Origin: a virus | Taxonomy: Duplodnaviria > Heunggongvirae > Uroviricota > Caudoviricetes | Strand: one strand, 5' to 3' | DNA: 48,989 nucleotides | Virus record (IMG/VR): IMGVR_UViG_2541047945_000011 | Part shown: positions 27,794 through 29,770 of the stretch, piece by piece | How the letters are laid out: the number at the start of each line of letters is the position of its first letter | How positions within the stretch are numbered: position 1 is the first letter of the stretch | The notes under the pieces: model-generated | Databases searched by the model: none | What the model was told of the DNA's origin: nothing | The model's input: only the letters and a program-made list of their open reading frames with translations | Program-made: the position numbers and the translations under genes

Positions 27794-29770
27794 TCATGCC
27801 GCGATGTCCGCGTTGTTCACTTCCACCTTCACACTGTCAATCAGCAGCGTATATGTCGCCGCCTTTGATATGCCTGTCAGTTGCAGTTTGTCCGCCGCCC
27901 CTGATGCCGGAGATTTCACCAGTGTGAACGGCGTCCCCCGTTTCTCATCCAGTACCGGCGTCACCTGAATGCTGTTGTTTCCGGCAAACTCAAAAGCCAG
28001 TGTGTGCCATCCGTTATCAAAGACCCCGAACGTTTCCAGCTTCGCATTCGGCTTCTTGTGGTGCATCGCGTTCAGGTTCGTCGCATCCGTCTGCAGAAAG
28101 AAGGACATCAGCATGTCGTTGCCTTCCTCTGCCAGCGTCACTCCCTCCGGCAGGGACGACAACTGCCAGTAAATGCCCAGGGCAAACTGATTCGGCACCA
28201 GTGAACCCGGCAACTTAAACCGTACGCTCACACGTCCCCCCTTCTTCAGTAACTCCACTCCCTGTCCGGCTGCATCATGCTCCAGAAACCAGATGTGGTT
28301 TTCCGGTTTATTCAGTTGCAGGGCCTTACCTCCCGTAGCCCCCGCATCACTGACCACCGCTTCAGCAATGTTTTTGTTAACATTGTCTCCGCTCGCCGGT
28401 TTGTGATAATAGCGCCAGCCCTGTGATGCCAGGTCTTCGCCGGACGCCAGCAGACTCATCAGGGTTCGGTTACTGACCGGGGCTTCCGGCTCTCTCTCCG
28501 TACCTTCACCGGAAGGTCCGGTGGGCTTCACCGTATCAGGCTGTTTTCCGGTAATGAATTCAGCGTTTCTCCCGGCATGCACAAGAATCGCCGTTGCCAG
28601 ACGGTCGGAAATAATCCCACGACGTGCCCATGATCCAAAATGCGTTTTACGGTCGGCCGTCGTCCAGGTTTTGGCGTCCGTTCGACCACCGGCTCCGTAA
28701 TACCCAATATCCGCAACATCCGGATCTTCTGACGGCTCGTTGGTACCCACATTTCGCCCGTTTTCATCCGTCATAAACGGCACAAAGAAGATTTTTTTTG
28801 CGGATTTCGTCTTGTATGCACCATACACCGCATCGTATTGCGAAGAATAAGTCTGCTTCCAGTAGTAGGTCGTGTCGCCACAAATCCAGGGAACCGATGA
28901 CGGAGAGCCCCCGAGACACTGACCTCCGAATTCCGACAGGTCAGAACGATATTTTTCCACCATGGAATCAAACAGCCCCGGCTGAGTGGCGTATGCACCC
29001 TGTTTCAAATCAAACTCGCCCTGCATCCAGACCACTGCAAGCAGAATATTTTTAGGGTTGGCCTTCAGTGCGGCCTGAGTACGGGTAAGCAGGTCCTTGT
29101 ACAGTGGCTTATCAACACCCCAGCGTGCCGAGGTCTCGCTTGCGCCGGTGGATTCGCTGAAGGTACCTTCATCGCCCGCCAAAAATGCAGAACCACCACG
29201 GCAGCACGGAACCAGAAGAATACCGGCATTCGCCGGAATAAACGGCAACAATTTCTTCGCGATATGTAATCCCTGCCCCACGCATCCATACTGAGCTGCG
29301 CTGGCTTTCGGGTGTGAAAACTTACTCAAATCCTGAACATCATGCAGGCAGTGGTCCGCAGGAATAATGTCATTGTAGTTACAGGACGCACCACCCGGCG
29401 TGACAGTGCTGCGACGCGCCAGCTGTTTAATACGCGGGTCCGGACGGTCATATGTCTCCGGCAGCGGAAGCCCTTCACCATACGCCATACCGTTTGACTG
29501 CCCGGCCAGGGCAACAACAAAGTAATACTCCGGGTTGCTGGTGGTGCTGATAACTGCGCCTTCTCCATCCGACGGCTTCACCACCACAGGTGTGGTGACA
29601 TCACCTTCCGCCGCAATGGCCTGCATCAGGGTATAAGGCGTGATGGCCACCGGACTGCCAAATGGCTGCCACCCCTCCTTCAGTTTTTGTGTCAGTCGTT
29701 TCGCAAGGTCTGACGGCGATGCCGCCCTGACAACATCATAGTGTTTAAATGCCATGGTTCTTTCCACCAT
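27794..29770 (-). CDS. nanS-p: Prophage-encoded sialate O-acetylesterase (NanS-p-like, SGNH/DUF303 esterase)
   Basis: 658 aa; sits between the Q/tRNA region and the holin, as NanS-p does in Stx phages; motifs such as FVVALAGQSNGMAY, VVWMQGE.D. Confidence 0.8.
   Translation of the reverse strand: MVERTMAFKHYDVVRAASPSDLAKRLTQKLKEGWQPFGSPVAITPYTLMQAIAAEGDVTTPVVVKPSDGEGAVISTTSNPEYYFVVALAGQSNGMAYGEGLPLPETYDRPDPRIKQLARRSTVTPGGASCNYNDIIPADHCLHDVQDLSKFSHPKASAAQYGCVGQGLHIAKKLLPFIPANAGILLVPCCRGGSAFLAGDEGTFSESTGASETSARWGVDKPLYKDLLTRTQAALKANPKNILLAVVWMQGEFDLKQGAYATQPGLFDSMVEKYRSDLSEFGGQCLGGSPSSVPWICGDTTYYWKQTYSSQYDAVYGAYKTKSAKKIFFVPFMTDENGRNVGTNEPSEDPDVADIGYYGAGGRTDAKTWTTADRKTHFGSWARRGIISDRLATAILVHAGRNAEFITGKQPDTVKPTGPSGEGTEREPEAPVSNRTLMSLLASGEDLASQGWRYYHKPASGDNVNKNIAEAVVSDAGATGGKALQLNKPENHIWFLEHDAAGQGVELLKKGGRVSVRFKLPGSLVPNQFALGIYWQLSSLPEGVTLAEEGNDMLMSFFLQTDATNLNAMHHKKPNAKLETFGVFDNGWHTLAFEFAGNNSIQVTPVLDEKRGTPFTLVKSPASGAADKLQLTGISKAATYTLLIDSVKVEVNNADIAA

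Follow-up and report, generated by a model that had tools for sequence, protein, structure and literature searches.

A Shiga toxin phage-type late region with nanS-p and an alternative cassette at the stx position in a lambda-like E. coli prophage

What does a prophage carry at the toxin position when its late region is laid out like that of a Shiga toxin (Stx) phage but no toxin gene is recognised? The question is raised by a viral sequence of 48,989 nt (IMG/VR record IMGVR_UViG_2541047945_000011; the whole stretch is called the window here). A first-pass annotation, made from the letters alone, had described tRNA genes downstream of Q/tR' and a NanS-p-like esterase ahead of the holin, and had proposed an stx-less relative of the Stx phages with different cargo at that locus. 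Every element of this layout was found, on the minus strand and in the order rusA, Q, pR'/tR', tRNAs, cargo segment, nanS-p, DUF1378, DUF826, S21-type holin, lysozyme, and Rz (Table 1). Alignment with Stx phage genomes, the check proposed at the time, gave the same gene order and a nucleotide identity of 70 to 90%. Indeed, the block has matches in 383 phage records, of which at least 223 have organism names that mark an Stx-converting phage, so the likeness is not a matter of chance. The late-region scaffold is of the same modular type as that of Shiga toxin phages. It is also the ordinary late gene set of a lambda-like prophage common in E. coli. Many human E. coli isolates carry the block at 100% identity, and 119 genomes contain at least 80% of it. 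The prophage is a lambda-like siphoviral one that adjoins a tRNA-Ser gene and mtfA, and its head genes are lambda-type, with a gpD-like decoration protein of its own (PGAP). The integrase is marked as frameshifted in the PGAP-annotated genome, which differs from the window at three bases, all outside the integrase gene; given this annotation, the capacity for excision may have been lost. The overall observation is real, was read correctly, and is already known, nanS-p in non-Stx prophages having been published (PMC10462455, PMC8065619).

Table 1. Features of the late region, in ascending window coordinates; promoter, pause, and terminator elements on the minus strand are given in reading direction.
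Feature	Position	Strand	Basis or remark
Lysis cassette beyond the holin	24480..26898	-	
Rz	24480-24938	-	Pfam, PGAP
Lysozyme R	25435-25968	-	Pfam, PGAP
YdfR/DUF1327-fusion ORF, 297 aa	26005-26898	-	Pfam, phrog_1085 full length, PGAP
Class II (P21 S-type) holin	26900..27115 (/27169)	-	Pfam PF04971 E=1.5e-32; PGAP class II holin
DUF826 protein	27192..27437	-	Pfam PF05696 E=2e-43; PGAP coordinates
DUF1378 small protein	27475..27657	-	Pfam PF07125 E=1.6e-35
nanS-p, prophage sialate 9-O-acetylesterase, 653 aa	27794..29755	-	Pfam, PDB, phrog_143 full length
NanS-p domains (residues)	DUF1737 1-55; SASA/NanS-like ~73-391; lectin-like C-terminal ~464-648		
iraL, RssB anti-adaptor (assigned by identity)	30016..30351	+	34% GC; converges on late transcription
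STnc100 small RNA	30377..30566	-	Rfam RF02076, 132 bits vs gathering score 47
STnc100 terminator hairpin	30407-30386	-	Terminator scan
Slot cassette, AT-rich, 41% GC, 659 nt	30596..31254	-	blastn vs Stx2_EH1910
DUF3927/TciB-like hydrophobic peptide, 43 aa	30632..30763	-	Pfam PF13064 E=1.7e-27
Slot ORF, predicted helical hairpin	30799..31077	-	92-aa core from GTG 31077
tRNA-Arg (TCT), argO	31265..31339	-	ARAGORN; Rfam 68 bits
argN degenerate relic	31340..31439	-	Alignment vs intact argN of two Stx2 phages
ileZ, tRNA-Ile2, CAT anticodon	31440..31515	-	ARAGORN Met(cat); Rfam tRNA 72.5 bits
Putative tRNA promoter pT (TTGCGG, 17-nt spacer, TATTAT)	31525..31553	-	
pR'/pause/tR' region	31552..31653	-	
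tR' hairpin and T-run	31578-31559	-	Terminator scan
Sigma-pause element AACGAT	31619-31614	-	Aligned in register with lambda
pR'	-35 TTGATT 31653-31648; -10 TAAATT 31631-31626	-	Alignment with lambda pR'
Late-gene antiterminator Q, 273 aa	31659..32480	-	Pfam Antiterm PF03589 E=2e-54

The upstream end of the block is a recognisable late control module. By sequence, Q is a member of the lambda-Q family: it matches the 207-aa antitermination protein Q chain of PDB 7ubm in two stretches (E=4e-40), a match that rules out the 933W and phage 21 types of Q, and it is 31% identical to lambda Q, with one large insertion. This insertion, of about 68 aa, is a CxxC zinc ribbon of the QuuQ type, and at the nucleotide level the gene is about 90% identical to the Q gene annotated as quuQ in the Stx2a phage Stx2_EH1910. 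In the alignment with lambda pR', GGTAAATT, the 6-nt spacing and AACGATGGG are all kept. The pR'/tR' sequence is identical in CFT073 and Stx2_EH1910, and the late leader is short, at about 65 nt.

The tRNA genes follow, as had been noted, although only two of them are intact. ileZ, labelled tRNA-Ile by PGAP, is identical to ileZ of Stx2 phages; its tRNA reads AUA once lysidine-modified. The argO gene shows zero differences from two Stx2 phages except in the last few 3' bases. Between these two, argN is a relic that retains the acceptor, the D-arm, and the 3' end and has its anticodon arm and T-loop replaced. No sense-strand tRNA was detected at 31340-31439 by ARAGORN with a lowered threshold and no tRNA match by Rfam at E<=1, which rules out an intact third tRNA there. 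With argN degenerate, the window is left with two intact tRNAs, whereas Stx phages have three. The stretch upstream of ileZ aligns with Stx2 phages and with the phi24B stretch annotated as "pT; putative tRNA promoter," and on this likeness it is a putative tRNA promoter here also.

Beyond argO lies the position at which Stx phages carry the toxin genes. Stx1 is about 55% identical to Stx2, so Stx2 queries are expected to pick it up as well. In a six-frame tblastn search of the whole window, the best hits for Stx2A and Stx2B were at noise level (E=0.62 and E=0.38, respectively), and Pfam found no toxin domain (RIP, SLT_beta) in any ORF of 40 aa or more in the interval from Q to nanS-p. When ten small ORFs of the slot region were searched with Pfam at E<=1, and NCBIfam and PADLOC were also applied, no other toxin or defence function emerged in the slot; the only matches were to DUF3927 and IraM. 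The reported absence of an Stx A- or B-like ORF is upheld by these searches. In blastn, Stx2_EH1910 matches the window on both sides of 30596-31254, and this cassette replaces positions 5144-6511 of the compared Stx2_EH1910 stretch, which hold the stx2 promoter, stx2A, and stx2B. Homology ends 8 nt past argO and restarts 46 nt past the stx2B stop. Different cargo thus fills the stx2AB position, as had been proposed; it is 99% identical to sequence in the CFT073 potB prophage and in phage mEp460_ev081.

Two small ORFs make up the recognisable content of the cassette. The larger matches phrog_2873 (E=4e-70); its longest ATG form has 108 aa, from 31125, and since homologues (57-60% identity) begin at MNIDE, GTG 31077 is the likely start. 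An AlphaFold2 model (pLDDT 84.6) has two long helices in a hairpin, for which Foldseek found nothing more specific in PDB and BFVD than generic helical hairpins (E>=0.25), and searches of Pfam, NCBIfam, and PADLOC gave no match. The predicted two-helix hairpin shows neither the RIP fold of the A subunit of an AB5 Shiga toxin nor the OB-fold of its pentameric B subunit. PGAP omits this ORF; that it is spurious is ruled out by the phrog_2873 match and by the homologues. The 43-aa peptide belongs to the DUF3927 family in the PGAP annotation and matches phrog_1470, "TciB-like" (E=8e-13).

Neither of the two features between the slot and nanS-p is replacement cargo, as both adjoin stx in real Stx phages too. 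In two Stx2 phages, STnc100 comes immediately 3' of stx2B, and published work placed it 75 nt downstream of stx2 (PMC12370729); Stx2_EH1910 also has a reverse-strand iraM/iraL gene. The window gene falls into the NCBIfam IraM subfamily NF007393 (162 bits, cut-off 121) and its product matches IraM in PDB 8twd (E=2e-32). Moreover, 110 of its 111 residues are identical to those of the CFT073 potB-prophage protein, which has been characterised as IraL, binds RssB, and stabilises RpoS (PMC4045071). Under a criterion of at least 95% identity to CFT073 IraL (PMC4045071), the gene is assigned as a CFT073-type IraL anti-adaptor, and with 99% identity it would be expected to act on RssB and RpoS likewise.

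The first-pass annotation gave the esterase 658 aa. That the protein is NanS-p-like stood, as a full-length homologue with an intact catalytic dyad; the length did not. The CFT073 copy, which is 99% identical, has ATA in place of the first ATG (29770), and elsewhere the protein starts at MAFKHY, as in PGAP and in all Stx-phage NanS-p, so the most likely start is ATG 29755, which gives 653 aa; the CFT073 ATA and the PGAP start rule out the longer form. Pfam matches are to PF08410 (DUF1737), PF03629 (SASA), and PF20350 (DUF6645), and structural matches are to NanS (PDB 3pt5, E=1.5e-118) and to a NanS-p C-terminal domain (PDB 6yp6, E=1.9e-60). Ser87, His372, and Gln86 align with Ser19, His301, and Gln18 of NanS, which are its catalytic residues and oxyanion Gln (PMC9063846). 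In full-length alignments the protein shares 60-65% identity with Stx-phage alleles (64% with WGPS2, 60% with phi24B gp84), and no more than this with any characterised or phage-collection NanS-p. For the C-terminal lectin-like domain the identity is 57%, so the substrate preference could differ; for the SASA domain it reaches 74% against an Stx2a-phage allele. No hydrophobic N-terminus is present (maximum 15-residue hydropathy 1.1). The gene is part of the late operon of the prophage and precedes the lysis genes. All tested nanS-p alleles from EDL933 and O104:H4 prophages are active esterases, and nanS-p genes are late-induced (PMC8065619, PMC10462455); other alleles hydrolyse Neu5,9Ac2 and O-acetylated mucin glycans (PMC8065619). 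By analogy with these, the window protein is presumably an active esterase.

Taken together, these features suggest, with a probability of about 90%, a Q-controlled late unit that encodes a cytoplasmic NanS-p freed by lysis and that carries an alternative cassette in the stx slot. On the model of lambda, pR' transcripts in the lysogen would end at tR', and the tRNAs would probably be made from their own promoter. On the opposite strand, iraL would be expressed from a promoter of its own, its product blocking RssB and stabilising RpoS as the 99%-identical CFT073 gene does, and STnc100 is probably a separate small RNA. Upon induction, the lambda-family Q would load on RNA polymerase paused at AACGAT, and transcription would continue through tR', past the tRNAs and the slot cassette and across the STnc100 terminator, to reach nanS-p, DUF1378, DUF826, and the lysis genes S, R, and Rz. 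Because NanS-p has no signal peptide and keeps its Ser/His dyad, it is likely made in the cytoplasm and freed through phage lysis. Outside the cell it would strip 9-O-acetyl groups from mucin sialic acids, which could then be used by surviving siblings. Between argO and STnc100, the toxin slot would encode a helical-hairpin protein of 92 aa together with a TciB-like peptide instead of stxAB. It is from relatives that we infer the esterase activity, the read-through under Q, and the stabilisation of RpoS.

Both the slot and the esterase gene might instead be read as products of decay. A former Stx phage could have had its toxin genes deleted, with debris left in the slot: the flanks are homologous to Stx2 phages, the argN relic directly upstream is a case of local decay, and the integrase is annotated as frameshifted. 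However, no stx remnant is present in DNA or protein, and the 659 nt of the slot are unrelated sequence and contain two ORFs of recognised phage families, one of them kept at 57-60% identity in diverged homologues. The same cassette also lies beside three intact tRNAs in CFT073 and occurs in the non-Stx phage mEp460_ev081, a pattern of modular exchange and not of decay. Such a deletion is therefore quite improbable; judged from its sequence, the slot is an alternative cassette in a shared position, with no sign of a decayed toxin. Likewise, the large ORF could be an inactive or decaying esterase gene without current function, given its 60-65% identity to studied alleles and the truncated copies elsewhere (a DUF1737 remnant in CFT073 and in 640R1, an IS3 insertion in strain 3059). 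We regard this as very hard to sustain, since no break interrupts the frame in any of the three domains, the oxyanion Gln is kept along with the catalytic Ser and His, the SASA domain is still 74% identical to the Stx2a-phage allele, and the allele is retained at >=99% identity in 220 genome records. Of 5,426 complete E. coli genomes, 369 carry the esterase gene in full.

A different role is suggested by a cryo-EM preprint on phi24B, in which DUF1737 hexamers sit on the capsid hexons and NanS-p has a structural role (10.64898/2026.04.10.717836). The picture of a released metabolic enzyme leaves this capsid role uncovered. If NanS-p were mainly a virion protein here, with DUF1737 anchoring the esterase to the capsid as in phi24B gp84, then phage particles, and not lysing cells, would carry a mucin-binding and mucin-modifying enzyme; a metabolic role would still be compatible with this. 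A DUF1737 domain is clear in the window protein, whose first 31 residues are near-identical to those of phi24B gp84. However, phi24B is a T=9 podovirus, and the window has lambda-type head genes and a gpD-like decoration protein; the second half of DUF1737 is unlike that of phi24B; and the window allele lacks the SSP motifs that have been proposed as processing sites. Moreover, the same DUF1737 variant (98% identity) occurs with a third, unrelated head module in Stx2a_WGPS2, which argues against a capsid-specific fit. In the six examples in which DUF1737 variant and capsid type were compared, the variant (…GSPVAITPYTLMQAIAAEG…) was found with two different long-tailed head modules, and the second half differs in the podovirus phi24B. 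This distribution is compatible either with capsid-adapted variants or with no capsid role in siphoviruses. We consider a mainly virion-borne NanS-p unlikely, and the specific proposal that DUF1737 anchors the esterase to a lambda-type T=7 capsid despite the gpD-like decoration protein somewhat more doubtful still. Were the latter true, a capsid-displayed mucin-modifying enzyme would be general to long-tailed lambdoid prophages of commensal and extraintestinal E. coli, and capsid display would be no peculiarity of T=9 Stx podoviruses.

The significance of a Q-controlled unit with released NanS-p and a replaced toxin slot is mostly for annotation. The stx position in lambdoid phages is an exchangeable cargo slot with fixed borders, argO and STnc100, of which the window is a clean example. 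Accessory genes regarded as "Stx-phage" genes (nanS-p, iraL, STnc100, and rare-codon tRNAs) are widespread in toxin-free human E. coli prophages, and neither nanS-p nor the Q-tRNA arrangement is usable as a marker of an Stx phage. Within the block, PGAP misses a conserved small slot ORF, and its "IraM" label here denotes the characterised IraL.

Compared with known systems, the block is closest in layout to the Stx lambdoid phages (933W, phi24B, Sp5), which share the order rusA, Q, pR'/tR', ileZ-argN-argO, slot, STnc100, nanS-p, followed as in the window by DUF1378, DUF826, S21-type holin, R, and Rz. The DUF1378 gene lies between nanS-p and S likewise in WGPS2, EH1910, and phi24B, and the DUF826 gene has the same position in Stx phages; the closest Stx phage is the Stx2a phage Stx2_EH1910 (LC567834). 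The window differs in that stxAB is absent with the 659-nt cassette in its place, the DNA methylase insert after tR' is missing, argN is degenerate, and NanS-p is only 60-65% identical. Its head and tail genes are lambda-type, whereas the 933W type is podoviral.

The lambda Q/pR'/tR' module has a homologous Q, a conserved -10, spacing, and AACGATGGG pause element, and then an intrinsic terminator. It lacks the zinc-ribbon insertion of about 68 aa carried by the window Q, and its leader is about 190 nt long, against about 65 nt here; the holin gene of the window, unlike that of lambda, is preceded by tRNAs and cargo that together span about 4 kb. The chromosomal E. coli NanS (YjhS; PDB 3pt5) shares the SGNH type II esterase core (57% identity over about 320 residues), with the Ser/His dyad and oxyanion-hole Gln common to both proteins. 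NanS is a single domain of about 326 aa, to which the window protein adds DUF1737 and a C-terminal lectin-like domain of the 6yp6 type, and the window protein, unlike NanS, is encoded in a phage late operon. Finally, the potB prophage of uropathogenic CFT073 (the "potB genomic island," PMC4045071) has 99% nucleotide identity to the window over 29700-31300, a stretch that spans the slot cassette, STnc100, iraL, and the start of nanS-p, and it has the same Q type and lambda-type structural genes. In CFT073, nanS-p is cut to a DUF1737 remnant, an IS200 follows Q, and three tRNAs are intact; integration is at potB, in contrast to the tRNA-Ser gene beside mtfA here.

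The first-pass annotation had described a late region of the Stx-phage type (Q, tR', tRNAs, nanS-p and S) without a recognizable toxin. All of these elements are present on the minus strand, and megablast of the block against the phage collection matched 383 records. At least 223 of these are named, by organism, as Stx-converting phages, so the resemblance reflects homology rather than chance. The phage best suited for comparison, the Stx2a phage Stx2_EH1910 (LC567834), has rusA and Q followed by a hypothetical gene, a methylase, three tRNAs, stx2A, stx2B, a reverse-strand gene annotated as iraM, and nanS-p; the methylase insert is missing from the window. 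The cargo stretch between tRNA-Arg(TCT) and the large ORF measures 1.5 kb. On sequence grounds the late block is real, with its parts, order, catalytic residues, and promoter and pause elements established.

Features of the late block, listed from rusA onward in window coordinates
Feature	Position	Strand	Basis or remark
rusA	32477-32851	-	
Q	31659-32480	-	Pfam Antiterm, E=2e-54
tR'	31578-31559	-	GC-rich hairpin and T-run, terminator scan
ileZ, tRNA(CAT)	31440-31515	-	ARAGORN, Rfam
argO, tRNA-Arg(TCT)	31265-31339	-	ARAGORN, Rfam
Slot ORF	30799-31125	-	phrog_2873, E=4e-70; core of 92 aa from GTG 31077
DUF3927/TciB-like peptide	within 30596-31254		43 aa
STnc100	30377-30566		Rfam, 132 bits
iraL	30016-30351	+	110/111 aa identical to CFT073 potB-prophage gene
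Large ORF (esterase)	27794-29770 as first read	-	
DUF1378, DUF826, P21 S-type holin, YdfR-like ORF, lysozyme, Rz		-	in this order after the large ORF

A tblastn search of the window revealed no similarity to Stx2A (best E=0.62) or Stx2B (best E=0.38), and no ORF between Q and nanS-p carries a toxin-related Pfam domain, in agreement with the initial failure to recognize an A or B subunit. Homology to Stx2_EH1910 (blastn) stops 8 nt past argO and restarts 46 nt past the stx2B stop codon. These breakpoints indicate that window 30596-31254 substitutes for 1,368 nt containing the stx2 promoter, stx2A and stx2B; the different cargo proposed for this locus is this cassette of 659 nt and 41% GC. E. 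coli homologues of its slot ORF are 57-60% identical, their conserved part starting at the GTG of the window, and PGAP leaves the ORF unannotated in all three annotated RefSeq genomes examined. AlphaFold2 gives a confident two-helix hairpin (pLDDT 84.6), for which there was no informative structural neighbor, nor did the ORF have a PADLOC match; at most, the product may be a small oligomerizing or regulatory protein. The absence of stx similarity, the NanS-p homologue and the different slot content support the reading of an Stx-phage-type late region without its toxin.

Q matches the PDB 7ubm chain (the 207-aa antitermination protein Q) at E=4e-40 in two stretches and is 31% identical to λ Q, with a single insertion of ~68 aa bearing CxxC pairs. 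Assignment to the 933W type was rejected, the homology being to the λ Q family; Stx2_EH1910 shares the Q type of the window. The 100 nt downstream of Q can be aligned with the λ late promoter pR', with the -10 TAAATT, the following 6-nt spacing and the AACGATGGG motif all kept. In λ, this motif gives rise to a sigma-dependent pause, on which Q acts. Rfam also matches the pR'-tR' leader (31555-31626, minus strand) to isrK, though weakly and below threshold (15.6 bits, E=0.6); this match may be due to chance alone.

Stx phages carry a three-tRNA cluster, ileZ-argN-argO. The ileZ of the window is identical to the Stx2-phage gene, and argO nearly so. At the argN position (31340-31439, minus strand), alignment to Stx2 phages shows the acceptor, D-arm and 3' end kept and unrelated sequence in place of the anticodon arm and T-loop; no tRNA was called there by ARAGORN at a lowered threshold or by Rfam at E<=1. 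Judged by this alignment, all that is left of the middle tRNA of the cluster is a relic. The window also retains the sequence that the phi24B record marks as a putative tRNA promoter. For the tRNA with the CAT anticodon, ARAGORN gives Met, whereas PGAP and the phi24B record call the identical gene tRNA-Ile (the AUA-reading ileZ); tools that consider only the anticodon give the wrong label.

In two Stx2 phages STnc100 occupies the equivalent place, directly 3' of stx2B. It has been located 75 nt downstream of stx2 (PMC12370729), and a connection with the PasD sRNA is drawn in a recent preprint. The gene labeled "IraM" in the window is, by its near identity to the CFT073 gene, IraL, which Hryckowian et al. 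showed to be an RssB anti-adaptor that stabilizes RpoS in log phase (PMC4045071). CFT073 is 99% identical throughout window 29700-31300; its nanS-p is reduced to a DUF1737 stub, whereas that of the window is full-length.

By Pfam, the large ORF comprises DUF1737, SASA and DUF6645. Its residues 78-396 match E. coli NanS (PDB 3pt5) at E=1.5e-118, and residues 469-653 match the crystallized C-terminal domain of phi24B NanS-p (PDB 6yp6) at E=1.9e-60. Together with the allele alignments, these matches uphold the likeness to NanS-p first noted for a 658-aa protein, but not that length: the CFT073 copy, 99% identical, has ATA in place of the first ATG of the 658-aa reading, and MAFKHY is the start in PGAP and in every Stx-phage allele, so the gene is 27794-29755 (653 aa). 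Ser87, His372 and Gln86 (653-aa numbering) are the conserved counterparts of the NanS catalytic residues Ser19 and His301 and of its oxyanion Gln18, respectively (PMC9063846). No hydrophobic N-terminus was found. The protein is 64% identical to the Stx2a_WGPS2 allele (DUF1737 98%, SASA 74%, C-terminal domain 57%) and 60% to phi24B gp84; the best match in the phage collection is at most 64.7% identical. The linkers (residues 56-72 and 392-463) are the most divergent parts, with ~35% identity to the WGPS2 allele. At least 80% of nanS-p is covered in 369 of 5,426 E. coli genomes, and 220 genome records match at ≥99% identity. For several alleles, esterase activity and induction with the late genes have been demonstrated (PMC8065619).

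In a 2026 cryo-EM preprint (10.64898/2026.04.10.717836), phi24B gp84 is shown to decorate the T=9 capsid by means of its DUF1737 domain. The window protein may have such a role as well, which would be compatible with that of a released enzyme, but the head of this prophage is λ-type, its DUF1737 domain departs from that of phi24B in the second half, and the same variant occurs in Stx2a_WGPS2 with a third, unrelated head module. Moreover, neither linker contains an SSP motif; SSP-containing motifs are the autoprocessing sites proposed in the phi24B preprint. In CFT073 (L005, 14062-14247) and phage vB_EcoS-640R1 (L001, 3563-3766), nanS-p is shortened to a free-standing DUF1737 ORF of 62-67 aa. 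These ORFs comprise only the domain for which capsid binding is reported in phi24B and may bear on a possible independent role of DUF1737.

The window differs from the chromosome of E. coli LC-1302-2020, an isolate from human rectum, by only three bases, all within rusA or the neighboring DUF968 gene. The matching region is a complete λ-like prophage adjoining a tRNA-Ser gene and mtfA, with λ-type structural genes (terminase, portal, gpC protease, gpD-like decoration protein, major capsid, tail) and all late genes on the minus strand. The 5.8-kb block 26800-32600 recurs at 100% identity in many human isolates, and 119 of 5,426 complete E. coli genomes contain at least 80% of its length. PGAP annotates the integrase as frameshifted in the matching genome; in the window (46931-47981, plus strand) its ORF stops at 47956, 25 nt before the end of the PGAP feature. 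Given this state, excision may have been lost.

Further elements lie in and around the block. A 297-aa ORF between holin and lysozyme (26005-26898, minus strand), with a DUF1327/YdfR N-terminus, is a partial YdfR pseudogene according to PGAP; it matches phrog_1085 over its full length (296/296 positions, E=1.5e-189) and, despite that call, probably represents a true, longer member of the family. After Rz, a position often occupied by bor in λ-like phages, a small gene (23843-24223, minus strand; TonB family protein per PGAP, lipoprotein-like N-terminus) looks like further accessory cargo. Upstream of rusA and Q, the nin-like region holds a hok/sok type I toxin-antitoxin pair (34878-35049, minus strand, with the adjoining hokD; sok, 107 bits in Rfam). 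On the plus strand, DicF (42621-42672), isrK (42912-42988) and C4 antisense RNA (43013-43100) cluster within 42621-43100, adjoining dicB, where a Rha-family regulator gene has its 5' end; the arrangement resembles an antisense-controlled antirepressor module in the style of P1 or Gifsy, here in the early region.

In the lysogen, pR' transcripts would stop at tR', and iraL, the tRNAs and probably STnc100 would be expressed independently. Upon induction, Q would render RNA polymerase terminator-resistant, and transcription would continue through ~4 kb of tRNA and cargo sequence to reach nanS-p and the lysis genes. The esterase set free by lysis could then de-O-acetylate mucin sialic acids, to the profit of surviving siblings.

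The configuration of the late block is common and already known. [quoted passage not shown] IraL, STnc100 and the tRNA cluster have each been described as well. As refinements, this analysis gives the stx slot exact borders, identifies the cassette that replaces the toxin genes, recognizes argN as a relic and the "IraM" gene as IraL, assigns Q to the λ family by homology and corrects the esterase start codon.
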